Numbered from the stretch's first letter, positions 3,099 through 42,760 are shown. The stretch is 53,318 nucleotides of DNA from Acidobacteria bacterium RIFCSPLOWO2_02_FULL_67_21 (GCA_001767195.1 MEKU01000056.1:49289-102606), one strand, 5' to 3'. A program made the numbers and translations. Notes: generated from the sequence alone by a model not told the origin.

Positions 3099-4206
3099 CC
3101 TGATACCGGCGATCGTCCTTCTCTGCGCGGTGCTGCCGCTCGCGGCGGCCGCGCAGACCATCGAGCTTGCGAAGGTGGAGGCCCACAGGATGGAGCGGAC
3201 CATCCAGCTTCCGGGCGAGTTCTATCCCTACCAGCGCGTGTCGCTGTTCGCGCGCGTGCCCTCGTTCGTGCGGGACGTGCACGTCGATCGCGGCAGCGTC
3301 GTGAAGCGCGGAGACCTCCTGGTCACGCTGACCGCGCCGGAGCTGGCGGCGCAGGTCGCCGAGACCGAGGCGCGCGCGCAGGCGGTGCTGCTGCAGCTGG
3401 CGGAGGCCGACGCCAAACTGATCAGTGCGAAGACGACCGCCGAGATGCTGAAGCAGGCGTCGGCCACCCCCGGGGCCGTCTCGATGAGCGAAGTGATCCT
3501 CTCCGAGCAGGCCTATCAGGCGGCGCAGTCGGTGAGAAACGCGGTGGAGAACTCCGCGAAGGCGGCGCGCGCGGCCGCGGAGGCGGTCAAGGAGCTCTCC
3601 GGCTACCTGCAGGTGCGGGCGCCGTTCGACGGCTTCATCACCGAGCGGCTCGTGCATCCCGGCGCGCTCGTCGGGCCGTCCACGGCCGGCACGGCCACGG
3701 CTCTCGTCCAGATCGAGCAGAACGCCCGGATGCGCCTCGTGGTCGCCGTGCCCGAGGCGAACGTTTCAGGCATCACCCGTGGAGCCGCCGTCACGTTCAC
3801 CGTCCCCGCGTATCCCGGTGAAACGTTTACAGCCACGATCGCCCGCCCGGCGCAGGCGCTCGAGGCACGGACACGATCGATGCTGGTGGAGCTCGACACC
3901 TCGAACAGCCAGGGCAAGCTGGCGACCGGGATGTTCGCCGACGTGGCGTGGCCGGTGCGCCGTCCGGCGACATCGCTCGTCGTGCCGACGACGTCGGTGA
4001 TTACGACAACCGAACGGACCTTTGTGATTCGGAATCGGGACGGCCGCGCCGAATGGGTCAACGTCAGGCGTGGCGCCCGGATGGGCGACATGGTGGAGGT
4101 CTTCGGTCCGCTGCGCGAAGGCGACATGGTCGTCCGGCGCGGCAACGACGAGATCCGCGAGGGCTCGCCGCTGACCAGCGCGCCGGCGGCGCGGACCGGC
4201 GGCTAG
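3085..4206 (+). CDS. Efflux RND transporter periplasmic adaptor subunit (MFP/HlyD-like)
   Basis: I trimmed the track ORF 3013..4206 to the ATG at 3085 (MKLHSLIPAIVLLCAVLPLAAAAQ signal peptide). It has a coiled-coil hairpin region (AELAAQVAETEARAQAVLLQLAEADAKL) and then a beta-barrel segment VRAPFDGFITERLVHPGALV typical of MFPs. It overlaps the RND stop by 14 nt. Confidence 0.85.
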   Translation: MKLHSLIPAIVLLCAVLPLAAAAQTIELAKVEAHRMERTIQLPGEFYPYQRVSLFARVPSFVRDVHVDRGSVVKRGDLLVTLTAPELAAQVAETEARAQAVLLQLAEADAKLISAKTTAEMLKQASATPGAVSMSEVILSEQAYQAAQSVRNAVENSAKAARAAAEAVKELSGYLQVRAPFDGFITERLVHPGALVGPSTAGTATALVQIEQNARMRLVVAVPEANVSGITRGAAVTFTVPAYPGETFTATIARPAQALEARTRSMLVELDTSNSQGKLATGMFADVAWPVRRPATSLVVPTTSVITTTERTFVIRNRDGRAEWVNVRRGARMGDMVEVFGPLREGDMVVRRGNDEIREGSPLTSAPAARTGG

Positions 4207-5532: not shown

Positions 5533-5660
5533 GGGCTTGGCTAAAGCCAAGCACTACGTGCGTCGTTGCACGACGTACTCGTACCGTCACGGTACGTAGT
5601 GCCGGGAACGTCGGTGTTACGTAGTCGGTGGTACGTAGTGCCGGGCTTCAGCCCGGCCCT
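5533..5660. repeat. Cluster of REP-like palindromes (CTACGT-flanked GC stems with TTCA/AA loops)
   Basis: The cluster contains gcttggct-aa-agccaagc-actacgtg, cgtcgt-tgc-acgacg, gtaccg-tca-cggtac and gtacgtagt-gccgggc-ttca-gcccggc. It lies between the porin start and the nuoG-like stop. Confidence 0.8.
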
Positions 5661-5661
5661 G

Positions 5662-7485
5662 CTACGGCTCGACCGGCTTGAGCGGGATGTAGGCGCCCTG
5701 CGGCGGCAGGCCTTCCATCTGAACCGAGTGCCCCTTGACCGGCGGCAGATCCTGGAACAGGAAGTCCCACTTCCACCGCTCGGACGGGTTGGAGGCCTGC
5801 AGCCAGTTGCGCGCGGGGATCGGCCTGGTGAACACGAGCCGGTCGGCCTCCGCATATCCGGTTCCCGGCATCGCACCGGCGATGGCCTGCCGCACGTCCG
5901 AGGCCGTCTCATACGGGAGCGCGACGCCGAGCGACCTTCCAAGATTGACCAGAATCCTCCAGTCCTCGAGCGCCTCGCCCGGGGGGGCGATCGCCCGTGA
6001 CGCCGCCTGAACGCGGCCCTGATCGTTTGTGTAGATCGCGTCTTTCTCGACGTACGCCGCGCCCGGGAGCACCAGATCGGCCGCCCCGGCGAGATCCGTC
6101 ATCAACACGCCCTGAACCACGAGCAGGGGAAGCGCGCCGCTGCGCCGGGCCGAGGCAATCCATGCGACGTCGCCCAGCGACCCGTCCGGGCCCGGATCGA
6201 TCACGTACAGCGCCTTCACGCGGCCTGCGTCGACGGCCTGCCGCAGCTCACGAAGATCAGGGGTCCCGTCGTTGCCCGTGCCGACGTCGTAGCCGAGATC
6301 GCGGGCGCCGTTGACGTTGGGAGCATCGGTGACGGGTACCGTGAACGTTGTCTGCTCGGGCTGCGGCTTCTCGCTGCGCGTCCACGCGACCGTGACCGAC
6401 TTCAATCCGTCGCTGCCGATGAGGGCTTCGGTCACCTGCTTCAGGACGAACAGTTCTTCCGTGGCGGCATGCGCGGAGACGAGAAACCGGACCGGGCCGG
6501 CGGCGGCGGCGTCCTGGAGCCGGTTCCGCAGCCGCGGCTGCAGGTCCTGCCACGCGACCGGCTCCAGCGCAGCCGCCTGCCCCGAGCGTGTCGAGGGGCT
6601 TCGAAGCAGCGGCCGCCGCAGGCGGCGGTCACTCTCGGTCCAGTGATAGTTGAACCGGCCGATGTCGCACATCCAGTACCCGTTGACCTCGGGGTTGAAG
6701 CGCGGCGTCATCCGGATCAGCCGGGACCCGCGGGCCCACTCCGGCTTGCCCTTGAGCCACGCGCTCGTATTGCACCCTTTCGAGCACAGCGTGCAGACCG
6801 TGTCGACGACACCCGGGTTGTCCCAGGGGCGGCTCTTGAAGCGGTAGTCCTTGGTGAGAATGGCGCCGACGGGACACACGTCCATCAGATTGCCGGACAT
6901 CAGCGAGTGAACGCCCTGCTCCTGGAAGGTCGCGATCTCGCTGCCGTATCCGCGATCGACGATCCCGATCTGCGCGTCGCCATCGATTTCCTTCATGAAC
7001 CGCACGCACCGCGTGCACAGGATGCAGCGGTTGCGGTTCAGCATCAGCGTCGGCCCGAAATCGACGTCCGCCCGAACGCCCTCGCCGTCGAAGACGCGCC
7101 GGGGGAAGTCCATCCGGCTCTCGGCGGGGCCGAAGGTGTACGAGAAGTCCTGAAGCGGGCACTCGCCCCCCTTGTCGCAGACGGGGCAGTCGAGCGGGTG
7201 GTTGATCAGCAGGAACTCGAACACGCCGGCGCGCGCGTCCACGACGTCGGGATCGCGGGTCAACACGACCATGCCGTCGGTGCAGACCGTCGAGCAGGAC
7301 GTCTGGAGCTTCGGCATCTTCTCGATCTTCACCACGCACACTCGGCAGGACCCATCGATGCTGATGCCGGGGTGATAGCAGTAGTACGGGACGGAGATGC
7401 CGGCCTCGATCGCCGCTTGCAGAACCGTCTTGCCTTTCGCGACCGTCACCGGACGCCCATCGATGGTCAGCGTCACCGTGTCCAT
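5662..7485 (-). CDS. nuoG: NADH-quinone oxidoreductase subunit G-like Fe-S protein (short form)
   Basis: N-terminal 2Fe-2S ferredoxin fold (CYHPGISIDGSCRVC). HPLDCPVCDKGGEC matches the N5-type HxxxCxxCxxxxxC motif. CILCTRCVRF plus CPVGA match a 4Fe-4S site. CTLCSKGC…WMCD matches the N7-type CxxCxxxC…C motif. At 607 aa it is shorter than E. coli NuoG. Confidence 0.85.
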   Translation of the reverse strand: MDTVTLTIDGRPVTVAKGKTVLQAAIEAGISVPYYCYHPGISIDGSCRVCVVKIEKMPKLQTSCSTVCTDGMVVLTRDPDVVDARAGVFEFLLINHPLDCPVCDKGGECPLQDFSYTFGPAESRMDFPRRVFDGEGVRADVDFGPTLMLNRNRCILCTRCVRFMKEIDGDAQIGIVDRGYGSEIATFQEQGVHSLMSGNLMDVCPVGAILTKDYRFKSRPWDNPGVVDTVCTLCSKGCNTSAWLKGKPEWARGSRLIRMTPRFNPEVNGYWMCDIGRFNYHWTESDRRLRRPLLRSPSTRSGQAAALEPVAWQDLQPRLRNRLQDAAAAGPVRFLVSAHAATEELFVLKQVTEALIGSDGLKSVTVAWTRSEKPQPEQTTFTVPVTDAPNVNGARDLGYDVGTGNDGTPDLRELRQAVDAGRVKALYVIDPGPDGSLGDVAWIASARRSGALPLLVVQGVLMTDLAGAADLVLPGAAYVEKDAIYTNDQGRVQAASRAIAPPGEALEDWRILVNLGRSLGVALPYETASDVRQAIAGAMPGTGYAEADRLVFTRPIPARNWLQASNPSERWKWDFLFQDLPPVKGHSVQMEGLPPQGAYIPLKPVEP

Positions 7486-12477: not shown

Positions 12478-12520
12478 ACGTAGTGCCCGGCTTGAGCCGG
12501 GCTGAAGCCCGGCACTACGT
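12478..12520. repeat. REP-like palindrome (same family)
   Basis: acgtagt-gcccggc-ttga-gccgggc-tgaa-gcccggc-actacgt is a three-arm GC stem with TGAA-type loops and inverted ACGTAGT/ACTACGT flanks. Confidence 0.8.
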
Positions 12521-23741: not shown

Positions 23742-26000
23742 TCACCTGGTGGCGCCCGGCCGCGGGGTCTGGGTGCCCGGCCCGGGCGCGGCGGCTCCCG
23801 CGTTGCGCATCACGAAGTCGAACATCGTCTGGCGCAGGTGCTTGTTGAGCCTGGGGTCGGTGACGCCGTGGCGGGACCGCGGGTAGATCATGACCTCGAA
23901 TGTCTTGCCGGCACGCTGCAGCTCGTAGGCGAACTGCTCCGAGTTCTGCCGGTGGACGTTGTCGTCGATGCTGCCGTGGATGAGCAGCATGCGGCCGTGC
24001 AGGTCGGCGGCGGCAAACCGCGGCGCCGTCCTCCGGTATCCGTCGGGATTGTTCTGCGGCGTCTTCATGTACCGCTCGGTGTAGACCGTGTCGTAGTTGC
24101 GCCAGTCGGTCACCGGGGCGCCGACGATGCCGGCGGACCAGCTGGTGCTGTGGGTGAGTGCGTAGGCGGTCATGAAGCCGCCGTAGCTCCACCCGTGCAG
24201 GACGATGCGCGACGGGTCCACGTACGGCTGCTGCTTCAGCCAGGCGAGGCCGTCTTCCAGATCCTGCAGCTCCAGCTCGCCCAGCCTGCCGTATACGGGC
24301 CACTGGGACTCGACGCCTTTGCCGCCCGCGCTGCGGTTGTCGAGCACCCACACGATCACCCCGTGCTGGGCGAGCAGCTGGTGATACATGAACGTCGATC
24401 CGCCCCACTGGTTGCGGACCGACGAGGTCCCCGGCCCTGCGTACGTGAACTGATACACGGGATAGCGCCGCGAGGCATCGAAGTCGGGCGGCTTGATCAT
24501 CATCGCGTCCATGACGAAGCCGTCCCGCGTCCGCACTTCGAGGAACTCGGGAGCCGACAGGCGATATTCGGCCAGCGCAGGCACCGGATTGGCGTCGATC
24601 GCACGAATCTCAGCGCCGTCGCTCCCATGGAGCCGGACCTGCGTCGGGGTGTTCACATCGTTCCAGATGCCGATGTAACGGGTGAACGTGGCATTGAAGA
24701 TCGCGCGGTTGGTGCCCGCGGCCGTAGAGAGGCGCGTCATGTCGCGGCCGTCCAGCCCGACACGGTAGATATCGGTGTCGATGTGCCGCCGGGCGCCGGC
24801 ATCGAAGTAAATGACGGCGCGGGCCCGGTCAACGCCGTACAAAGACCGCACGTCCCAGCGCCCCTCGGTCACGCGCCGGATGAGCGTGCCGTCCTGCCGG
24901 TAGTGGTACAGGTGCTTGAAGCCGCTCCGTTCGCTGAACCAGAGAAACGATCCGTCCTCGAGCCATACCGGGCTCCCGTTCACGTTGACCCAGGCAGGCG
25001 TCGTCTCGCGCAGCACGCGCCGCGACGCGCCGGTTGCCGGGTCGGCCAGGTTCAGGTCCAGCCACCGCTGCTCGCGATCCTGTACCTGAAACGCGACGTG
25101 CGTCCCATCCCTCGTCCAGTCGACGTCGACGATGAGCAGCTCCGTGTCCGCATACTCCGCCAGCGGCACCCACCGCACCGTGCCGCCGGCGGCCGGCACG
25201 ACGCCCAGCCTGACGAGCGGGTTGGGATCGCCGGCTTTCGGATAGTCGGTGACCTCCACGGTCGGCCGGTACGAGATGTCGTCGACGACCGTGTACTCCG
25301 GGACCGGACGTTCGTCGAGCTGCAGGAAGGCGAGGCGCGCCGAGTCGGGGCTCCACCAGTAGCCGCGAAACTGTCCGCGCCCGTAGATCTCCTCCTGGTA
25401 GAGCCAGTCCAGCTTGCCGTTGAGCAGCTGCGCCCCGCCGTCGGTCGTCAGCGCCTGCTCGAGGCCGGTGGCAATGTCGACGACGTGGAGGTTATTGCCG
25501 CGAACAAACGCGACGCGCCGGCCGTCCGGGCTGAACGTCGGCTCTTCCTCATCCCCCGCCGTCGAGGTCAGCCGGGTCACTGCTGCCGATGCGAAGTCGT
25601 GGAAATAAAGGTCGCCCTCCAGCTCGACGAGAACACCGGTCCTGGCGGGGTTCAACAGAAGACTGCTGGTGCGCGCCACCCGCGCGGCTTCCTCCCGCGA
25701 CACTCCGGCGCGCTCGGTGAGCGCCGCTTCCATCCTCGCCGGGTCGAAGAGCGGCGACGTCCGGCCGGAGACCGCGTCGACGCGCAGCCAGTCCACCCCG
25801 GCTCCCGAGGAGCGCCGGATCTCCAGATAGGAATCGGCATCGATCCAGCGCAGATTGGCCGGCGGCGTTCCGGAGAACTCCACGCGCTGATCGGGGTCGT
25901 AGATGGCGTCGATCGAGAGCGTCCTCCGCGTCTGCGCGGACACCGCTGCCGTCAGGATCAGGCACAGGCCGGCGGTCGTGCGGAGCGCGGCAAGGCGCAT
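23742..26000 (-). CDS. S9-family serine peptidase, dipeptidyl-peptidase IV-like
   Basis: 752 aa with a signal peptide and a long beta-propeller-like N-terminal region. The nucleophile elbow is GWSYGG, and the downstream Asp and His are in GSIDDNVH and SRHG. Confidence 0.85.
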   Translation of the reverse strand: MRLAALRTTAGLCLILTAAVSAQTRRTLSIDAIYDPDQRVEFSGTPPANLRWIDADSYLEIRRSSGAGVDWLRVDAVSGRTSPLFDPARMEAALTERAGVSREEAARVARTSSLLLNPARTGVLVELEGDLYFHDFASAAVTRLTSTAGDEEEPTFSPDGRRVAFVRGNNLHVVDIATGLEQALTTDGGAQLLNGKLDWLYQEEIYGRGQFRGYWWSPDSARLAFLQLDERPVPEYTVVDDISYRPTVEVTDYPKAGDPNPLVRLGVVPAAGGTVRWVPLAEYADTELLIVDVDWTRDGTHVAFQVQDREQRWLDLNLADPATGASRRVLRETTPAWVNVNGSPVWLEDGSFLWFSERSGFKHLYHYRQDGTLIRRVTEGRWDVRSLYGVDRARAVIYFDAGARRHIDTDIYRVGLDGRDMTRLSTAAGTNRAIFNATFTRYIGIWNDVNTPTQVRLHGSDGAEIRAIDANPVPALAEYRLSAPEFLEVRTRDGFVMDAMMIKPPDFDASRRYPVYQFTYAGPGTSSVRNQWGGSTFMYHQLLAQHGVIVWVLDNRSAGGKGVESQWPVYGRLGELELQDLEDGLAWLKQQPYVDPSRIVLHGWSYGGFMTAYALTHSTSWSAGIVGAPVTDWRNYDTVYTERYMKTPQNNPDGYRRTAPRFAAADLHGRMLLIHGSIDDNVHRQNSEQFAYELQRAGKTFEVMIYPRSRHGVTDPRLNKHLRQTMFDFVMRNAGAAAPGPGTQTPRPGATR

Positions 26001-26010
26001 AAAACACAGG

Positions 26011-26048
26011 ATATCAGGCCCCAGGGCTCAGACCCCAGGGCGCAGACC
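26011..26048. repeat. Left arm of a split periodic hairpin (CAGGGCT flavour)
   Basis: atat-caggccc-cagggct-cagaccc-cagggcg-cagacc, starting 11 nt outside the DPP4-like start codon. Its partner is at 28797-28814. Confidence 0.55.
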
Positions 26049-26168
26049 TCCGTGCCGCTGTCCATGGAGCCGGACTTGTCGGCGAGGCACGATGCCGACC
26101 GGCCTATTTTTGCGCGCCTTCCAGCCAGATCCGGCGCAAGTAGCGTGCACACTGCACGTTGATGGCAA

Positions 26169-26197
26169 TTGAATCGGCTCAGGCGTCGGAATAGACT
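26169..26197 (+). promoter_or_regulatory. Candidate sigma70-like promoter upstream of the methyltransferase
   Basis: TTGAAT (26169-26174), a 17-nt spacer, then TAGACT (26192-26197), 86 nt upstream of the ATG at 26284. This is pattern match only, and acidobacterial promoters may differ. Confidence 0.3.
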
Positions 26198-26283
26198 GCG
26201 ACCGCCTGCAGGCGCATTGGATTATCGAGTTCGGTCGACTGCTGGTTGGGCGTCATGAAGCAGTATCGCTTGCGGAGGAAGGG

Positions 26284-27288
26284 ATGAAAGAACCAGCATC
26301 GCGAGCACCACGAAACAGGACGCTGGCAATCTCTGAGCATGATGCCGAACGCCTGCGTAGGCGACTGCTTGTCGTCGATCAGCCCTTGGCTCTATCGGAG
26401 TGCGCTGGGCGAACCATCCTCGGCGACTCCTTGTTGGTCCTGCCCCTATTGCCCAAGCAATCTGTGGATTTGCTGATCGTTGACCCGCCATACAATCTAA
26501 CCAAGGCCTTCAGCGGCTCTACATTCAAGAAACAGCCCCTCGCGGCATACGAAGAGTGGCTCCATTCCTGGCTCGCGCTGGCAGTCGGACTCTTGAAGCC
26601 TTCCGCCTCAGTGTACGTGTGCAGCGAATGGCGATCCTCGGGAGTCGTCCAACGTGCTCTTGAACGGTACTTTCTTGTTCAGAACCGGATCACGTGGGAA
26701 CGCGAGAAGGGTCGTGGTGCTTTACGAAACTGGAAGAACTGCTCCGAGGACATTTGGTTTTGTGTTCTTAGCGACCAATACTTCTTTGACGTAGAGGCCG
26801 TGAAGCAGAAGCGCCGTGTGATTGCGCCCTATCGTGACGCAGACGGAAAGCCGAAGGACTGGAACGAGGAAGCCAACGGCGGTTTCCGACTGACCCACCC
26901 TTCAAATCTCTGGACTGATATCTCGGTTCCCTTCTGGTCGATGCCAGAAAACACGGAGCACCCGACTCAGAAACCAGAGAAATTGTTCGCCAAGCTGGTG
27001 CTCGCTAGCTCCAAACCCGGAGACTGCGTGCTCGATCCCTTCTTGGGTTCCGGCACCACGTCAGTCGTAGCAAAGAAACTCGGGCGACAATTCATCGGGA
27101 TTGAGCAAGAGGAGATCTACTGCCTGTGTGCTGAGAAGCGATTGGAGTTAGCTCATAACGAGCCGTCGATTCAGGGCTACTCCGGTGGCTACTTCTGGGA
27201 GCGCAATTCCCTCGCGTTCCAGGACACGAACAACACAACGCCGAGTTCCAACGCAACCGGTCAGTCTTTCCTGTTCGAGGACAACTGA
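26284..27288 (+). CDS. Beta-class DNA methyltransferase (N6-adenine or N4-cytosine) of a type II R-M system
   Basis: Motif IV (LLIVDPPYNL) lies N-terminal to motif I (VLDPFLGSGTT). That IV-before-I order defines the beta class. GGAGGAAGGG lies immediately upstream of the ATG. GC is about 52 % versus about 70 % in the flanks. Confidence 0.9.
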   Translation: MKEPASRAPRNRTLAISEHDAERLRRRLLVVDQPLALSECAGRTILGDSLLVLPLLPKQSVDLLIVDPPYNLTKAFSGSTFKKQPLAAYEEWLHSWLALAVGLLKPSASVYVCSEWRSSGVVQRALERYFLVQNRITWEREKGRGALRNWKNCSEDIWFCVLSDQYFFDVEAVKQKRRVIAPYRDADGKPKDWNEEANGGFRLTHPSNLWTDISVPFWSMPENTEHPTQKPEKLFAKLVLASSKPGDCVLDPFLGSGTTSVVAKKLGRQFIGIEQEEIYCLCAEKRLELAHNEPSIQGYSGGYFWERNSLAFQDTNNTTPSSNATGQSFLFEDN

Positions 27289-27950
27289 TGAGGAGCCGGC
27301 TCTTTCATAGCAATGACTACGTGTTGGTCCAGGACCGCGTGAGGGACTTGATCAATGGCAGTCCAGATTTCCTATCGAAGAACACCGCCCAGAGCCCGAG
27401 GGCTGCGGGGGATGCCATCGAGAACGTGGTCGCGGCATCCTTCGAGAACATTCTTGGCGAGCACTGTGGCGAGTACTCCTCGAACTTCGCCCGCCGGGCA
27501 ATGGCTGACCTCGCGTTTAAGGATCGCGACGGTCTGTACTACATCGTCGATGTCAAGACGCACAGGACCGACACGAAGTTCAACATGCCGAACCTTACCT
27601 CTGTAGAACGGCTGGCGCGTTTCTACGAGGACGACAGCAATGTCTTCACGGTTCTCCTCGTCAGCTACAGCGTCGAGGGTGTGAAGGCACAGGTCACCCA
27701 TGTCACATTCGTGCCCATCGAGTTCCTCGGATGGGATTGCCTAACGATTGGGGCGCTCGGTTGGGGCCAGATTCAGATAGCCAACTCGAATCGAGTGACC
27801 GTGAATCCTGGGTACGCGCGGAAGCGTTGGATGCTGGAGTTCTGCGATGTGATGTTGGAGTTCTACCCGAAAGAAATCGCTAAGATCGGCGATCGCGTAT
27901 CTCGCTTCCAGCAGGTCCGTGAGTTCTGGTCGAAACACTCCGACGACTGA
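27288..27950 (+). CDS. Putative type II restriction endonuclease (PD-(D/E)xK-like)
   Basis: The ATG overlaps the methyltransferase stop (TGATG). It is 220 aa and has the same low GC. The candidate catalytic signature is MAD…(14 aa)…DVK within ADLAFKDRDGLYYIVDVKTH. The family is not recognised, so the call rests on context plus this motif. Confidence 0.6.
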   Translation: MRSRLFHSNDYVLVQDRVRDLINGSPDFLSKNTAQSPRAAGDAIENVVAASFENILGEHCGEYSSNFARRAMADLAFKDRDGLYYIVDVKTHRTDTKFNMPNLTSVERLARFYEDDSNVFTVLLVSYSVEGVKAQVTHVTFVPIEFLGWDCLTIGALGWGQIQIANSNRVTVNPGYARKRWMLEFCDVMLEFYPKEIAKIGDRVSRFQQVREFWSKHSDD

Positions 27951-28026
27951 CGCCCAACACGGCATGCAGCCGACGGCGCGAGTGATTCAGCGCGCCGCGG
28001 CTGATGCCTGCCGTTGAGGGTTCGCG

Positions 28027-28233
28027 ATGAAGCTGGGGGAACTGCTCGAGATGGTTCAGGACATGGATCGCCAGAATCCTGGTGAACGGGCGCTCCGGTT
28101 TCAGACTTGCCTCGATTCCGGGGCGCACAGGCTTCAGGAACTCCGCCGCGTCTCTGGCAGGCAGCAGACCTACTGCCTGGATTGCCTGACGTGGTTTGTC
28201 GATGGCACGGCTCAGAACCCTCCGAGACGCTGA
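28027..28233 (+). CDS. Hypothetical small protein (68 aa), uncertain
   Basis: ATG with GAGGG 6 nt upstream. The N-terminus looks helical (KLGELLEMVQDMD) and there is one CxxC (CLDC). Antisense ORFs of similar length exist, so coding status is unresolved. Confidence 0.3.
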   Translation: MKLGELLEMVQDMDRQNPGERALRFQTCLDSGAHRLQELRRVSGRQQTYCLDCLTWFVDGTAQNPPRR

Positions 28234-28437
28234 TGCACTGTGCCGGTCGGGCAAAAAACGGAACGATGAATCGGAATGGCCGATACCGACTCATGATCTG
28301 CCTAACACCGCATGCACCAGACGGCAGTAGCGCATTTTAGGGGCGCCGCTGGTGAGGCGTTGCCGTTGCCACACCAAAGCCACGATTCGAGCACGGCGGA
28401 CGCATACTCGAAATGTCTCATTTGCGAGAGGTAAGGC

Positions 28438-28794
28438 ATGGAGGCCCAGATTCCCGGCGTCCACTCGGATCCAGACATTCTCGGCGGAACGCCTGTGTTC
28501 GTCGGAACGCGCGTGCCTGTCAAGGCGTTGCTCGACTACCTGGAACACGGCCGACCGCTAGCCGGTCAGCAGACGAAGTATTCCGCGAGGCTCGGGCTCG
28601 GATCTAGCCTGTGCGCGTCACGTTCAACGAGTTGGCCGAGCGCGAACTCAAGGACGCGGCGCAGTACTACGAGCGTGAACAATCCGGGCTTGGCACCGCA
28701 TTCATCGCGGAAGTACGGCGATGTGCCGGGGATGGTGCCGCGGGCGAGCGCCAATCCGTTGGGCCGACGCGACGTCCCCAGGAACAATCGGTGA
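28438..28794 (+). pseudogene. DUF433-like antitoxin-type gene, probably frameshifted
   Basis: The first ~40 aa (DPDILGGTPVFVGTRVPVKALLDYLEHG) match the DUF433 signature. After about aa 45 the translation turns to low-complexity sequence and runs through the neighbouring ParE-like ORF. Confidence 0.5.
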
Positions 28795-28811
28795 GCGGCC
28801 CTGAGCCCTGA
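28611..28811 (+). pseudogene. RelE/ParE-family toxin remnant (frameshifted and 3'-truncated)
   Basis: After the GTG start, RVTFNELAERELKDAAQYYEREQSGLGTAFIAEVRRC matches the N-terminal half of ParE-like toxins of about 100 aa. The expected continuation (…ANPL…RDV.R) appears in another frame (28438 frame: ASANPLGRRDVPR). The ORF then ends inside the hairpin arm at 28797-28814. Confidence 0.55.
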
Positions 28812-28814
28812 TAT
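28797..28814. repeat. Right arm of a split periodic hairpin (CAGGGCT flavour)
   Basis: ggccctg-agccctg-atat. Its reverse complement atat-cagggct-cagggcc matches the left arm (atatcagg plus gctcag) if one 7-nt unit is skipped. It ends 9 nt before the MBL gene ATG. Confidence 0.55.
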
Positions 28815-28823
28815 TGTCACCAG

Positions 28824-30200
28824 ATGCCCGAGCTCACGTTCCTGGGTGCGGCACGGACGGTGACCGGCTCGAAGTACCTGCTGGAACACGACGGCCGCCG
28901 CGTGCTGGTCGATTGCGGTCTCTTTCAGGGTCTCAAGGAGCTGCGGCTTCGAAACTGGGAGCCGTTCCCGATTGCGCCGCGCAGCCTCGACGCCGTGGTG
29001 GTGACGCACGCCCACCTCGACCACGTCGGCTGGCTGCCGCGCCTGGTTGCGCAGGGCTACCGTGGCCGCATCTTCTGCACGAGCGGGACGGCCGACCTGT
29101 GCCGCCTCGTGCTGCCCGATTCAGCCCGCATCCAGGAGGAAGACACCCGGCGCGCCAACCGGCGCGGGTACACCAAACATCATCCTGCGCTGCCGCTGTA
29201 CACCGAGGCCGACGCCTGGCGCGCCGTGTCGCAGCTCCAGCCGCTCGGGTATCACCGCCCCATCGAGGCGGCTTCCGGCCTCTCGATTGAGTTCACGCCG
29301 GTCGGCCATCTCCTCGGAGCCGCGTACGTGCTCGCGCGCCTCGACGGCGCCGGCACGATTCTCTTCGGCGGCGATCTCGGCCGCTACGGCCGGCCGGTGC
29401 TGCCGGATCCGTCCGATGCCGTCGAGGCGGACATCGTCCTGGTGGAATCGACGTACGGAAACCGCGATCATGCCCCCGACGACGACGGCGAGGCGCTGGC
29501 GCAGGCCATCCGCGACGCCGCGGCGCGCGGCGGCAAGATCATCATTCCGTCCTTTGCCATCGGCAGAGTCGAGGAGCTCCTGTACTGGGTGCGGCGGCTC
29601 GAGGAGGCCCGCCGGATTCCCGTGCTGCCTGTCTACATCGACAGCCCGATGGCGTCCGAGGCGCTGCGCTTCTATACCGCGCGTGTCGCCGAGCTCGATC
29701 CCGACATGAGGCCGGCCCAGAAGGGCGTGGCCACGTTCGGATCTACGCGCTTTCAGACCGTCGCGTCGCCACAGGAATCGAAGGCGCTCACCGCATCCGA
29801 CGCTCCGGCCATCATCATTTCGGCAAGCGGGATGGCCACCGGCGGCCGCGTGCTGCACCACATGGCCGCGGCGCTGCCCGATCCGAAGCACACCATTCTC
29901 TTCGTAGGATTCCAGGCGCCGGGCACGCGCGGCCGGCAGCTCGTCGACGGCGCTCATGAAGTGAGGATTCACGGCCGGCCGGTTCCCGTGGCCGCGCGGA
30001 TTGTCAACAACGACTCGATGTCGGCGCATGCCGATCGCGGTGAGATTCTCAGGTGGCTCTCGACGCTGCCCCGGCCGCCGCGTCGTCTGTTCCTGGTGCA
30101 CGGTGAAGAGAACGCGCTCGGTGCGCTCAAGGACCTCGTGAAGAGCCGTCTCGAGTGGGATGCCTACATCCCGTCGTACGGCGAGCGCATCCACCTCTGA
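28824..30200 (+). CDS. MBL-fold metallo-hydrolase, beta-CASP (RNA-metabolising) subfamily
   Basis: 458 aa with HAHLDH (the HxHxDH motif) after LVDCGLFQG. The length and C-terminal region are typical of beta-CASP/CPSF-like nucleases. Confidence 0.85.
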   Translation: MPELTFLGAARTVTGSKYLLEHDGRRVLVDCGLFQGLKELRLRNWEPFPIAPRSLDAVVVTHAHLDHVGWLPRLVAQGYRGRIFCTSGTADLCRLVLPDSARIQEEDTRRANRRGYTKHHPALPLYTEADAWRAVSQLQPLGYHRPIEAASGLSIEFTPVGHLLGAAYVLARLDGAGTILFGGDLGRYGRPVLPDPSDAVEADIVLVESTYGNRDHAPDDDGEALAQAIRDAAARGGKIIIPSFAIGRVEELLYWVRRLEEARRIPVLPVYIDSPMASEALRFYTARVAELDPDMRPAQKGVATFGSTRFQTVASPQESKALTASDAPAIIISASGMATGGRVLHHMAAALPDPKHTILFVGFQAPGTRGRQLVDGAHEVRIHGRPVPVAARIVNNDSMSAHADRGEILRWLSTLPRPPRRLFLVHGEENALGALKDLVKSRLEWDAYIPSYGERIHL

Positions 30201-31377: not shown

Positions 31378-32966
31378 TGGCCCGCGAGCCTCGGTCGCGG
31401 CGCGCCGGCGTGCTCGTCCCGCTGTTCTCGATGGCCTCGGCCCGCAGCTGGGGCATTGGTGAGATCGGCGACCTGCACGCGCTGTCACGCTGGCTTGCGA
31501 GCGCGGGCCTGCGCGTGCTTCAGCTGCTCCCGATCAACGAAGTGCCCGTGGGGGAAGCGTCGCCCTATTCCGCCCTCAGCTCGATGGCGATCGACCCGCA
31601 GTTCATCACGCTCGATCGCGTCGACGATTTCCTGGAGCTCGGCGGAGAGGAGCGGCTCGAGCCGGAGCTCCGCGAGCGACTGGACGCCGTGCGCAGTCAT
31701 GCGGCGATCGACTATGCGGACGTCCGCGCGCTCAAACAGACCGCGCTGCGCCGTGCGTTCGTCCGCTTCCGGAGCGTCGAGCTGGCCGGCGGCACGCGGC
31801 GCGCTGCGGCCTTCCGGGCGTACGTCCAGGACCAGGCCTGGTGGCTGGACGATTACGCGTTGTTCCGGGCGCTGCACGCGCAATCGGGCGAGCGGCCCTG
31901 GACCGAATGGCCCACGCCGGTGCGCACCCGGCAGCCCGGCGCGCTCGACCGGGCGCGCGGCGAGCTGGCCGACGACATCTTGTATCGACAGTACGTGCAG
32001 TGGGTTGCCGACGATCAGTGGGCCGACGCGCGGGCGGCCGCCGGCGGGGTGGCGCTCTTCGGCGACCTCCCGTTCATGGTCAGCGGCGACAGCGCCGACC
32101 TCTGGGCCCGCCAGGACGAGTTCCGCTTCGACGCATCGGTCGGCGTGCCGCCCGACGCGTTCAGCACGACGGGCCAGGACTGGGGGCTGCCGGTCTACCG
32201 ATGGGACGTCCTCGCCGGGCGGGACTTCGACTGGCTCCGGGACCGCGCGCGGCGGAATGCGGCCCTCTTCGACGGCTATCGCATCGATCACCTCGTGGGG
32301 TTCTACCGAACCTACTTTTGGCCGCACGACGGCACCGATCCGGGCTTTACGCCCGACACCGAGGAGGCGCAGACCGCGCTCGGCGAGCGGGTGCTGAGCG
32401 TCTTTCGAGAGTGCGGGGCCGAGATCGTGGCCGAGGATCTCGGCACCGTTCCGGAGTTCGTCCGCGAGTCGCTCGCGAGGCTCGAGGTCCCGGGGTTCAA
32501 GGTGCTCCGGTGGGAGCGCGAATGGCACCAGCCGGGGCAGCCGTTCCGGGATCCGGTCGGCTACCCGCGCAGCGCGGTCGCCACGTCGGGCACGCACGAC
32601 ACCGAGCCGATGGAGGTCTGGTGGGAGCAGGCAGGCCGTGAGGAGCGGGAGGCGGTGCTCGCGGTGCCGTCGATCCGTGAACGCCTCGACGACGAGGATC
32701 GGGCGGTGGCCGTCGAGCATGCCGGCATGACGACCGCGCTGCGCGAGGCGCTGCTCGAGACGCTCTACGCCTCAGGCGCCGACCTGCTGATCCTCCCGGT
32801 GCAGGACATCTTCGGCTGGCGCGACCGGATCAACCGGCCCGCGACCGTCAACCCCGCCAACTGGACCTGGCGTCTTCCCTGGCCGGCCGACCGATGGACG
32901 ACCGAGCCAGCGGCAATGGCGATGGCGACACAGCTCAGGGAATGGGCGGCCAGACACAATCGGTAG
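31377..32966 (+). CDS. malQ: 4-alpha-glucanotransferase (amylomaltase, GH77)
   Basis: 529 aa. The N-terminal RRAGVLVPLFSMASARSWGIGEIGDL, plus DHLVGFYR and GTHDTEP, are typical MalQ blocks. Confidence 0.9.
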   Translation: MAREPRSRRAGVLVPLFSMASARSWGIGEIGDLHALSRWLASAGLRVLQLLPINEVPVGEASPYSALSSMAIDPQFITLDRVDDFLELGGEERLEPELRERLDAVRSHAAIDYADVRALKQTALRRAFVRFRSVELAGGTRRAAAFRAYVQDQAWWLDDYALFRALHAQSGERPWTEWPTPVRTRQPGALDRARGELADDILYRQYVQWVADDQWADARAAAGGVALFGDLPFMVSGDSADLWARQDEFRFDASVGVPPDAFSTTGQDWGLPVYRWDVLAGRDFDWLRDRARRNAALFDGYRIDHLVGFYRTYFWPHDGTDPGFTPDTEEAQTALGERVLSVFRECGAEIVAEDLGTVPEFVRESLARLEVPGFKVLRWEREWHQPGQPFRDPVGYPRSAVATSGTHDTEPMEVWWEQAGREEREAVLAVPSIRERLDDEDRAVAVEHAGMTTALREALLETLYASGADLLILPVQDIFGWRDRINRPATVNPANWTWRLPWPADRWTTEPAAMAMATQLREWAARHNR

Positions 32967-33028
32967 GCCGACCTGAAGGTCGGCCTCTACGAGGGTTCCG
33001 TAGAGGCGGACCTTCAGGTCCGCCTAAC
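32963..33028. repeat. REP-like composite palindrome spanning both convergent stop codons (malQ/glnS)
   Basis: gt-aggccgacc-tgaa-ggtcggcct-ctacg-agggttc-cgtag-aggcggacc-ttca-ggtccgcct-aac. This is two TGAA/TTCA-loop hairpins around a central CTACG/CGTAG stem. Confidence 0.8.
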
Positions 33029-40945: not shown

Positions 40946-40946
40946 G

Positions 40947-40972
40947 CACGGAGGGGACGGAGGCACGGCAAC
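40947..40972. repeat. Left arm of a split periodic hairpin (CACGGAG flavour)
   Basis: cacggag-gggacggag-gcacggcaac begins 2 nt after the serC stop. 40949-40965 (cggaggggacggaggca) is the perfect reverse complement of 42744-42760. Confidence 0.75.
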
Positions 40973-41043
40973 TATGTCGTGGCGTTTACACTTCCTGACG
41001 CGCGGCCCAATACTCGCTGCCGATCAGCTTTCGCCGCTGATCC

Positions 41044-41265
41044 TTAGCACTCGAGTCGGTGGTCCGGCTCCCAGAACTCGCACCCAGCGCATTCTTCCTC
41101 GGTCACGTGGGGTGGAGCGCATTCCACCGTAAGGCGTGTGCGACGCGGCCGCACACACACCCACGGGCCGCCCGGCTGTTCGGGGATGTCAACGAACTGG
41201 GAAGCCAGCCGAGTCCACTGGCAGTTCCAGGGGAACTGCACGCCTTTCTTTGCGACTTCTGGCAT
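41044..41265 (-). CDS. Hypothetical small Cys-rich protein (73 aa)
   Basis: ATG with AAGG 7 nt upstream. It has six Cys including CAGC (CxxC) and a C-terminal Cys. A 7-bp hairpin (GATCAGC…GCTGATC, 41022-41042) follows the stop. It lies in the low-GC island and I recognise no family. Confidence 0.4.
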   Translation of the reverse strand: MPEVAKKGVQFPWNCQWTRLASQFVDIPEQPGGPWVCVRPRRTRLTVECAPPHVTEEECAGCEFWEPDHRLEC

Positions 41266-41794
41266 TTGAAGCCTTAGAGTTGCGGCGCAGCAAGTGCCGT
41301 GCCCTTAACGGCTCCGCGAGTTCTATAAGCATTTGCAGGTGTCGGGACACGGGCCTGCAGGATCTTGATCAGTCGTGCCGTGAAATGTCCGATCCCATGC
41401 TGGAAATCCCACGGGTTGTATCTCGCAGAACATGATCGGTCGGAGCAGCCCGTGTCGGAGCGGATCTTTGGAACGCTGGTTGCGCCGCGATGGCCGCGTT
41501 CTCCGTTTCTGTCAGATTCCTTCGGTAAATCCTTGGCGACAAAATGATGCGCTAGTAAACACTGGGCTTTCCGCGTAACTCACATTCAGCTCGCGAATAG
41601 CGTTTCCGGATTCGGTCGTTGGCTTGCGTCTGTTCGCGTCAGGCTGCTGCGTGCGCCCGGGTTACTTGCAGCGGGTCAGTGCGAGTATTCGACCATCCTT
41701 GCCATCGTCTGGCGCCTGAAGTTCATCGAACATCGGTGCGCTCGCGGGCGCTCGGCGGCGTGGCGCTCGATTCGACTGAGCGGCCGGCAAGATA

Positions 41795-41832
41795 GGTAAC
41801 AGATCAGTCCGGCCCCGGACCGTTCTGTTACC
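41795..41832. repeat. 38-nt nested imperfect palindrome
   Basis: The sequence is GGTAACAGA-tca-GTCCGG-cc-CCGGAC-cgt-TCTGTTACC. It has a 9-bp outer stem plus a 6-bp inner stem and sits in the non-coding stretch upstream of 41965..42468. Confidence 0.7.
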
Positions 41833-41964
41833 CTTCTCTCCGGACCGCACCTATCGACCGGCTAACCGAATGGAGCCGACGCGCCAGGAGTTTCCTGCGA
41901 TCATGTCGCCGCGGCGCGCGGCTCATTCGGAACGTCTAGGCCCGCATTGAGGAACAGCAAGGCA

Positions 41965-42468
41965 ATGAAAGTCAATCAGTCAAACAATTCTGACCCAGGC
42001 TTCGGAAGTACAACATGGCGAGCAACGGGTCTCGTTGTACTAGCGGTCTTGCTAGGCAATGTCAACGCGCTGGTCGACTCTGTTCTCCACCCGGAGATTT
42101 CGTACTTCGATCGGGAGCATCTCATCGTGGGAGGCGTTACGGCCCTCGCCAGCGCAGTGCTCTCCTTTCTATTGATTCGCTACGAGCGTCACCTGAACAG
42201 AGCAATAGACACTATCGATCATCTTGAAGCGATTCTACCGATTTGCTCCAACTGCAAGAAGATTAGAAGGAGCGACGAAGGGCTAAATGTTGCGGAGTCC
42301 TGGCAGTCAATAGAGTCGTATTTCACTGAGAAGACGCGCTCGGAGTTTAGCCATGGTATTTGCCCAGAATGCATGGTGGCCCTCTATCCAGATTCCGTGC
42401 CGAGCCCGACAGCGAAGGACGCCGACATACGTGGTCACGCGCCGACCGCACGCCGCAATGAGGCCTAA
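41965..42468 (+). CDS. Membrane-anchored protein with C-terminal four-cysteine CxxCKKIR…FSHGICPEC module
   Basis: I prefer the ATG at 41965 (AAGG upstream) over the TTG at 41947. It has two TM helices (GLVVLAVLLGNVNALV and VGGVTALASAVLSFLLI). The C-terminal ILPICSNCKKIRRSDEG…WQSIESYFTEKTRSEFSHGICPECMVALYP matches a recurrent uncharacterised Cys4 module. Confidence 0.75.
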   Translation: MKVNQSNNSDPGFGSTTWRATGLVVLAVLLGNVNALVDSVLHPEISYFDREHLIVGGVTALASAVLSFLLIRYERHLNRAIDTIDHLEAILPICSNCKKIRRSDEGLNVAESWQSIESYFTEKTRSEFSHGICPECMVALYPDSVPSPTAKDADIRGHAPTARRNEA

Positions 42469-42704
42469 CACGTTTGCAGCCGTCGGCGACTGGCGCGACA
42501 ATGAGCCGTCGCGGTCGTATCCGCACTCCCAATCATCGGCGGAATCGCATTGACACTGGCGCGGCGCCAGCCAGGCGCCGGTCACTCCGCGGCGTGGAGG
42601 GGACCTCGCTCAGACCACATGTCGGAGCGCCTCGAGCCTCCAGAGGTAGTTGGCGATCTGATTCCAACTGGCGAACGTCAGGTCCTGACAGTTTTCTCTC
42701 CATT

Positions 42705-42760
42705 CACCCTCCGTTCCTCCGTGTCTTCTCCGGGTACGACCGTTGCCTCCGTCCCCTCCG
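42705..42760. repeat. Right arm of a split periodic hairpin (CACGGAG flavour)
   Basis: caccctccgt-tcctccgtg-tcttctccg…ttgcctccgtcccctccg ends 1 nt before the pcnB stop codon. The last 17 nt are perfectly complementary to 40949-40965. Confidence 0.75.

Follow-up and report, generated by a model that had tools for sequence, protein, structure and literature searches.

Clusters of attC sites that lack an integron integrase are known as CALINs (Cury et al. 2016, PMC4889954). Integron integrases can also insert cassettes outside att sites, at GWT motifs, and small CALINs, together with single attC sites lacking an integrase (SALINs), have been suggested to arise by insertion at genomic attG sites (bioRxiv 10.1101/2022.09.11.507474). 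Here we analyse island A, a low-GC block that occupies the spacer between a DPP4-like S9 peptidase gene and a beta-CASP metallo-beta-lactamase-fold (MBL) gene in Acidobacteria bacterium RIFCSPLOWO2_02_FULL_67_21. The window, that is, the whole stretch of 53,318 nt that was analysed (GCA_001767195.1 MEKU01000056.1:49289-102606), supplies all positions given without a contig name. Island A is probably an integrase-less integron cassette array, i.e. a CALIN, which is decaying inside an older heptamer hairpin of the DPP4/MBL spacer.

As in described CALINs and SALINs, island A carries at least two predicted attC sites with an R'' box of the form RYYYAAC and an R' box of the form GTTRRRY, both of them imperfect bulged hairpins that follow an open reading frame (ORF) on the same strand. 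Island A is also small, it has no integrase nearby, integrases are found elsewhere in the genome, and its left junction is a G|TT boundary following non-att DNA. With these predicted sites it falls within the working definition of a CALIN (PMC4889954). However, island A lies inside a periodic hairpin of a divergent promoter spacer, its outermost junctions are not G|TT, and 196 nt and 38 nt of unexplained DNA lie between its cassettes and the host sequence. For the Vicinamibacterales, the acidobacterial group of the host, the literature searched yielded no integron description. Island A is, in these terms, a CALIN of a known kind in an unusual, well-documented setting. It offers a specific case on which the proposed origin of small CALINs, by insertion of cassettes away from att sites, could be tested, and the intact empty sites of its relatives document how a putative defence module reaches a compact chromosome. 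A restriction-modification (R-M) pair that appears to circulate across phyla as a single cassette now lies in an integrase-less array, in a lineage whose integrons are barely described.

Periodic heptamer arrays have been reported as inverted pairs in Xanthomonas (GGGAATC) and as single arrays in Nostoc, in a study that reports no overall link to mobile elements (Rehm et al. 2015, PMC4692102). The arrays of the present genome are likewise intergenic and built of 7-nt units, often in convergent pairs capable of forming a stem-loop; their length varies between related genomes, and their type is usually kept at a given site. In contrast to the Xanthomonas and Nostoc arrays, many different words occur in this genome, and the serC site has a different word from genus to genus. 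In this genome, cassette arrays interrupt two of the arrays, and an IS110-family element interrupts another. The DPP4/MBL hairpins belong to this little-studied class of inverted-pair heptamer arrays. Elements of the IS110/IS1111 family insert into repetitive extragenic palindromic (REP) sequences or attC hairpins. Island A resembles such insertions as mobile DNA within an intergenic palindromic repeat without target duplication, and an element on contig C80 does split a periodic hairpin, but island A has neither a DEDD transposase nor the characteristic ends of the family. In the case of Type II R-M systems as selfish modules that spread horizontally, the likeness lies in an N6/N4 beta-class methylase that overlaps a small nuclease-like gene by one base and in the foreign composition; the difference is that the vehicle is identified here, the pair travelling as one integron cassette with its own predicted attC site.

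attC sites and cassettes of island A

Two imperfect palindromes of ~70 nt follow ORFs of island A, starting with GCCCAAC and GCCTAAC and ending with GTTGAGG and GTTGCCA, respectively. Their architecture (R'' box, short stem, bulged G, 6-bp stem, bulged A, GC stem, loop, and R' box GTTRRRY) recurs on other contigs. A structure-only, bulge-aware scan returned 12 attC-like sites in the genome versus 2 in the reversed genome, and both island A sites are among the 12. We built a covariance model from nine sites on other contigs of the same genome, none of them from the window, after trimming the variable loops. The model matches attC A1 with 61.7 bits (E 4e-12), attC A2 with 41.8 bits (E 2e-7), and attC B1, which lies in a second low-GC block named island B, with 37.4 bits (E 2e-6). 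These three loci, two in island A and one in island B, are the only ones in the window: the sole other match under E 0.69 is the opposite strand of attC A1 (E 0.063), and the next new locus has an E of 0.69. The DNA fold of attC A1 has a z of -4.5, and that of attC A2 is not better than shuffles. Island A thus comprises two full predicted attC sites, 281 nt apart, which are candidate substrates of an integron integrase, and the 3' half of a third.

Genome-wide, the model finds 19 attC sites, and five integron integrases of this 4.2-Mb genome score above the TIGR02249 cut-off, which none of 14 control genomes reaches. On contig C45, two attC sites (2243-2321 with 62.7 bits, and 3544-3616) lie beside an integrase gene, so C45 holds a complete integron that uses the attC family of island A. 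The same family is present in 31 of 41 relatives (G001-G040 among the 41), with up to 23 sites per genome. Integrons seem to be common in this acidobacterial family, and the lineage appears integron-rich. Several of the integrase genes are found where contigs terminate, which would be expected were the assembly interrupted by cassette arrays. The motif GTGCTA(GA/CC)ATCCGCGCAT(T)CAACGGGTT is conserved at C45:~1540-1580, C33:441-480, C5:108424-108460, and C16:26835-26870; on C45 and C33 it follows the 3' end of intI, and in the other two cases it sits at one edge of an integrase-less array. This motif is probably the attI site; if so, the arrays would lie downstream of intI and not divergent from it.

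The initial annotation had seen no integrase, transposase, or direct repeats. None was found here either: no ORF of island A has a transposase domain in Pfam or NCBIfam, contig C56 has no TIGR02249 match to an integrase fragment, and the ends of island A carry no direct repeat; the integron attC sites, however, had been overlooked. Three other approaches to attC detection were discarded. A strict regular expression with a minimum-free-energy test found nothing beside the integrase genes and was replaced by the structural scan and the covariance model; a looser constrained-fold scan for AAC...GTT fired on nearly all GC-rich DNA; and a sequence pattern for the attC 3' half gave 4 real matches versus 6 in the reversed genome, and neither of the latter two is specific.

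The first cassette contains the R-M pair. Its DNA methyltransferase (MTase) matches PF01555 N6_N4_Mtase (9.1e-41), with the NCBIfam adenine-specific methyltransferase models under cut-off, and the start of the 220-aa partner, a small restriction endonuclease (REase)-like protein, overlaps the methylase stop by one base. The partner has 4381 homologues of up to 90% identity in unrelated phyla; the two proteins together keep 75-90% amino acid identity across unrelated phyla, and each of the three contexts read has the partner behind such an MTase. The pair is flanked by attC on both sides in L092 and followed by attC in L089 and L090. The homology of the window with the R-M cassettes of L092 and L089 starts exactly at GTTGGGCGTCAT and ends within attC, and this start (G|TTGGGCGTCAT) places the cassette boundary, a G|TT (G|TTGGGC), at 26245|26246. 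Judged by these contexts, the methylase/nuclease pair is a widely travelled single integron cassette with its own predicted attC site. In a further copy of the cassette, that of L091, the attC (5660-5685) has collapsed to GCCCGACCGGAGCGTTATGC, in which little more than the R'' and R' boxes is left after loss of the hairpin.

The single ORF of cassette 2, orf68, has no Pfam or NCBIfam match. Cassette 3 is a chimera, composed of an N-terminal DUF433 fragment (~28462-28557), the last codons of a PF09720-type antitoxin (28558-28607), codons 1-39 of a ParE toxin (28611-28727), and the 3' half of an attC site (~28729-28764). The ParE homologues (PF05016) are 96 aa long, and only residues 1-39 match, with 93% to P0124. 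The metagenome contig L143 carries an intact, attC-bounded antitoxin/ParE cassette with an intact attC of 53 bits; window 28558-28728 corresponds to L143 2448-2618 at 95%, and window 28718-28766 to L143 2846-2895 at 88%. This comparison indicates a single internal microhomology deletion of ~227 nt between GCGATGTKCC repeats, which removed ParE codons 40-96 and the 5' half of attC, and it is because of the homology to the intact L143 cassette that the attC 3' half was accepted. The ParE-like ORF had been described as cut exactly at the right arm of the hairpin. The frame does continue as far as the arm and reaches its stop in CCCTGATAT, but the homology ends at 28727/8, at codon 39 and ~68 nt before the arm, so ParE was not cut by the arm. 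A full-length ParE_toxin domain of ~96 aa behind an upstream antitoxin was not found; of the antitoxin, nothing but the last codons remains, joined to the DUF433 fragment. By their sequence, the toxin and antitoxin genes of cassette 3 are pseudogene remnants, neither functional, and do not form a working addiction module. Of the defence and addiction genes proposed earlier, the putative R-M cassette therefore stands, whereas the toxin-antitoxin genes are a broken remnant. L143 (JGI Ga0394882_0009382) has its intact antitoxin/ParE cassette beside an IS110 transposase and a tyrosine recombinase, and the site of the present genome that matches the L143 integron (C10:9150-9202) reads N.

The empty site in relatives and the split hairpin

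Divergent pairing of the DPP4-like and MBL genes is conserved: the spacer between them measures 17-152 nt in 27 related loci versus 2823 nt in the window, and island A is absent from all 27. The initial annotation had proposed inspecting this pair in relatives and had predicted an empty site in the form of a short CAGGGCT hairpin; the relatives indeed show a CAGGGCT/CAGGCCY hairpin between the same two genes. In the closest relative, L035 (85-88% amino acid identity in MBL), the spacer reads CAT AAAGGACAGGATATCAGGCCCAAGGCCTGCTATCGTCCCCTG ATG. L038 contains a full hairpin with four heptamers per arm, ATAT CAGGCCT CAGGCCT CAAGCCG CAGGGCT ..loop.. AGCCCTG CGGCCTG GGGGCTG AGGCCTG ATAT, and related versions occur in L036, L003, L002, and L004. 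The spacer of the closest relatives is accordingly a hairpin of CAGGSCY heptamers between two conserved CTG(A/C)TAT boxes. The word CAGGSCY is kept across genera at this spacer.

The window holds a disrupted member of the same kind. Whereas L038, L036, and L003 have two inverted arrays of 7-nt units with a short loop at the orthologous site, the window reads ATAT CAGGCCC CAGGGCT CAGACCC CAGGGCG CAGACCT at 26011-26049 and GGCCCTG AGCCCTG ATAT at 28797-28814, as had been written before, with 2747 nt between the two flanks. The arms are unequal, with five heptamer units on the left and two on the right. Their earlier description as partially identical, 8 plus 6 matching nucleotides with one unit skipped, understates the match, for 26011-26027 and 28798-28814 are complementary at 15 of 17 positions without a gap. 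Since the hairpin persists unbroken at this site in relatives, it is older than island A, and the window retains both hairpin bases; therefore, island A is a lineage-specific insertion into the hairpin. By this comparison, island A sits inside what was one compact hairpin, as a clean insertion. The loop and about three units of the right arm were removed either at entry or by a later deletion. The 15/17 repeat is explained by the host hairpin and its promoter boxes, and hence does not represent the terminal inverted repeats of a transposon.

The repeat alone is not significant. The flanking inverted repeat scores 9 (+1/-3), below the mean of 10.6 for random pairs of 700-nt windows from the same genome, and one-armed heptamer arrays of the same flavour occur elsewhere (C94:99885-99945 and C61:20520-20570). 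Thus, the arm similarity, for which better-than-random agreement had been the proposed check, lies below the chance level of the genome, and the empty sites carry the proof instead: the reality of the split hairpin rests on comparative evidence, and the claim that the two flanks are arms of one hairpin is borne out by the intact hairpins of L035, L036, L038, L003, L002, and L004. The composition of the block is foreign, as had been expected. Island A has 58.4% GC versus 67.5% for the 53-kb window, and the G+C content at third codon positions (GC3) of the MTase is 0.66 versus 0.85-0.89 in neighbouring genes. The GC drop is real but smaller than the 52% given for the R-M genes, which have 55.5% (MTase) and 56.6% (REase).

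The palindromic ATAT at the stem base turned out to be part of two conserved promoter-like boxes, TGATATCCT on the DPP4 strand and TGATATTGT on the MBL strand, and both recur in relatives, including those without a hairpin. We infer that both boxes are extended -10 elements of leaderless or near-leaderless promoters. The two genes would then use extended -10 boxes (TGnTATnnT) at 6-7 nt from their start codons, with no need for a -35 element. With promoter boxes at the spacer ends, the hairpin interior would be the only dispensable DNA of the spacer, and an insertion into the 42-nt divergent spacer would survive only there. Loss of the island would also carry a cost through the putative R-M pair. 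The cassettes may have been added at the G|TT of 26245|26246 by an integrase supplied in trans, so that the newest cassette would lie nearest to this point; such newest-first addition fits the gradient of decay, from the intact R-M cassette through the worn attC of orf68 to the broken toxin-antitoxin remnant. Retention at the dispensable hairpin interior is a likelier and simpler reading than preferential landing. At some sites the periodic repeats are of long standing, and kilobases of DNA can be accommodated in them with no harm to the genes on either side, which does not imply that the repeats attract DNA. The coordinates of the features are listed in Table 1.

Table 1. Features of island A, its surroundings, and the integron integrases of the genome
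Feature	Position	Strand	Description
Cassette 1, putative restriction-modification	26246..28013	+	MTase 26284-27288, REase-like 27288-27950, attC A1 27952-28019
Cassette 2	28014..28365	+	orf68 28027-28233 and degenerate attC A2 28300-28371
Cassette 3, chimeric toxin-antitoxin remnant	28366..28758	+	parts given in the text; DUF433 7e-10
X_L	26050..26245		196 nt, non-coding, between left arm and first cassette; ends in the G of G|TTGGGC
X_R	28759..28796		38 nt between last G|TT and right arm; L143 homology ends at 28766; sequence in no relative's spacer
Left arm of ancestral hairpin	26011..26049	+	ATAT and five heptamers; Tandem Repeats Finder (TRF) period 14, 2.5 copies; homologous to left hairpin halves of L035, L036, L038, L003
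Right arm remnant	28797..28814	+	two heptamers only; homologous to right halves of relatives' hairpins, ..GGCCTG(A/C)TAT
TGATATCCT box	26008..26016	-	7 nt before DPP4 ATG; CTG(A/C)TAT at the same start-codon distance in relatives; candidate extended -10 of a leaderless or short-leader promoter
TGATATTGT box	28809..28817	+	6 nt before MBL ATG; TGATAT(N)GT/TGCTAT(N)GT kept just upstream of the MBL start in >15 relatives; candidate extended -10
DPP4-like S9 peptidase gene	23742..26000	-	left neighbour of ancestral spacer; Pfam DPPIV_N 1.9e-87, Peptidase_S9 3.8e-48; adjoins MBL gene in 27 related loci
Beta-CASP MBL gene	28824..30200	+	right neighbour; Beta-Casp 2e-32, RMMBL 3e-18, Lactamase_B 2e-13
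Island B, second low-GC block	40949..42760	+	59% GC; between complementary octamer arms; attC B1 41860-41941 and 5' half attC from 42463
Integron integrase genes	C45:409-1350, C33:716-1663, C92:1-903, C89:5143-5943, C39:25121-25885		TIGR02249 above cut-off

Weighing the alternatives

Several points weigh against the reading of island A as a CALIN retained in the hairpin. The attC model was built by us from this genome's own sites and is not the curated IntegronFinder model. The 220-aa partner of the methylase has no Pfam, NCBIfam, or PDB sequence match; it is a putative restriction nuclease from its gene context, a D...DVK motif read by eye, and one UniRef name, 'Restriction endonuclease'. A sigma-70 scan, which requires a -35 element, found no promoter. 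X_L has no homologue elsewhere in the genome and no attC fold, and it gave no alignment better than shuffles with the attI-like regions of C45, C5, C16, and C33. The arm junctions, 26049|26050 and 28796|28797, show no G|TT signature, so an integrase can explain the addition of cassettes at 26245|26246 but not the first entry of DNA. The order of cassette arrival proposed above is inferred from decay only. Finally, two hairpin islands in one window are somewhat above expectation if hairpins make up 5-20% of spacers, and a targeting component is possible.

Such targeting is the substance of the first alternative, in which extruded periodic hairpins are preferred over other intergenic DNA as substrates or break points, through an integron integrase that reads folded hairpins, through other hairpin-reading recombinases, or through hairpin cleavage and end joining. 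Both low-GC islands of the window lie between complementary arms, and similar arrangements occur in other places. On C80 (73452-75007), an IS110-family (DEDD) transposase gene is located between the GAGCCACAGAG and CTCTGTG arms of a CACAGAG hairpin. A split AGGGGGCA hairpin with small foreign ORFs is found at C52:9400-10322, and genome G024 has a 530-nt insertion between CACGAAGN arms in the orthologous serC spacer (L101, G024:C7). A one-sided CTCGGTGN array lies 29 nt past the final attC of L143. Against this, island A has no G|TT at its arm junctions, and the heptamer arms have no AAC/GTT core. This genome has six integrase-less cassette clusters whose two ends are both assembled; complementary periodic arms enclose A and B but none of the other four. 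In relatives, such arms occur around 0 of 17 cassette loci, and a search reaching 600 nt beyond the attC span found periodic arrays at 0 of 20 loci. Complementary pairs of orphan arms within 30 kb number 27 versus ~19 expected, which is no clear excess, and with ~10 periodic hairpins among the ~45 spacers of the window, two islands in hairpins are only mildly unusual. These negatives are not absolute because the scans would miss short or mismatched arms like the right arm of island A; the low-GC island scan itself did not recover island A, whose repeat is too weak. We therefore consider hairpin-targeted entry of island A unlikely.

The data do not support a general preference of incoming DNA for hairpins. 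The proposal that foreign DNA lands in, or is retained in, these hairpins consequently survives in its second half, retention being plausible, and not in its first, given 0 of 17 loci in relatives and 2 of 6 here. The broader idea, that the periodic hairpins of Vicinamibacterales are structure-dependent entry points for integron integrases and IS110-family enzymes, or sites of breakage and capture, where arrays seed preferentially, is in our view decidedly unlikely; if true, it would connect a class of repeats that still lacks an explanation with the spread of integrons beyond att sites.

A second alternative takes island A as the remnant of a complete integron that arrived in a single event, with the intI-attI platform to the left of the cassettes deleted and X_L as its leftover. 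Cassette decay rises with distance from X_L, which fits the X_L end as the point of insertion, and other integrons of this genome have lost a recognisable integrase while keeping an attI-like motif (C5:108424 and C16:26835). However, X_L has neither significant similarity to the attI-like regions nor a match in the genome, contig C56 holds no integrase fragment, and X_L lacks the conserved GCGCAT(T)CAACGGGTT motif of this genome's integrons, in which the arrays lie beyond the intI 3' end. We regard a deleted platform as very improbable. The weakest alternative, in which two independent short heptamer arrays and promoter boxes are complementary by chance and never formed one hairpin in this lineage, could draw on the repeat score below chance level, on the one-armed arrays of the same flavour, and on the two conserved divergent boxes, which explain the outer ATATCAGG/CCTGATAT match and are also present in relatives without any hairpin (L037, L039, L147, and L148), but it is scarcely credible given that, on both sides of the tree, a true hairpin of the same word occupies this site in the closest relatives (L035, L036, L038, L003, and L004) and that the CAGGCCC by the left box and the GGCCCTG/AGCCCTG by the right box of the window are in phase with those hairpins.

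Island B and other periodic repeats

Island B shows the same arrangement as island A, as the initial annotation had noted, and has an attC site of its own. Its arms, CGGAGGGGACGGAGGCA at 40949-40965 and TGCCTCCGTCCCCTCCG at 42744-42760, are 17 nt long and perfectly complementary. Island B codes for a membrane-anchored protein of 173 aa that contains CxxC...CxxC motifs (41947-42468) and, on the minus strand, a 73-aa Cys-rich protein (41044-41265), neither of which has a family match. The convergent spacer between serC and the next gene (window 40946-40970, L094-L122) contains a periodic hairpin in almost every genus, but the word differs; CACAGAG, ACACCGAG, CACAAAG, GCAGTAG, GTGATGT, and others are found.

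The split hairpin of C52 consists of a left AGGGGGCA arm and two complementary right arms ~500 and 865 nt away, which enclose a LysE-like fragment and the gene of a four-helix-bundle protein. The 530-nt insertion of L101 carries one acetyltransferase-like ORF and no attC. The one-sided array of L143 (2894-2962) consists of three copies of CCTCGGTG and lies just before the stop of DoxX. A pair of arrays at C61:27021/28291 was rejected as a split hairpin since it comprises two intact hairpins of one flavour. A second repeat family, the short GGCCCGGCTGAAGCCGGGCACTACGTAC hairpins, occurs at window 12478-12520 and 32964-33026, C33:2778-2867, and C16:25090-25150; these hairpins are single, in tandem, or in inverted pairs, and are also located beside integrase genes.

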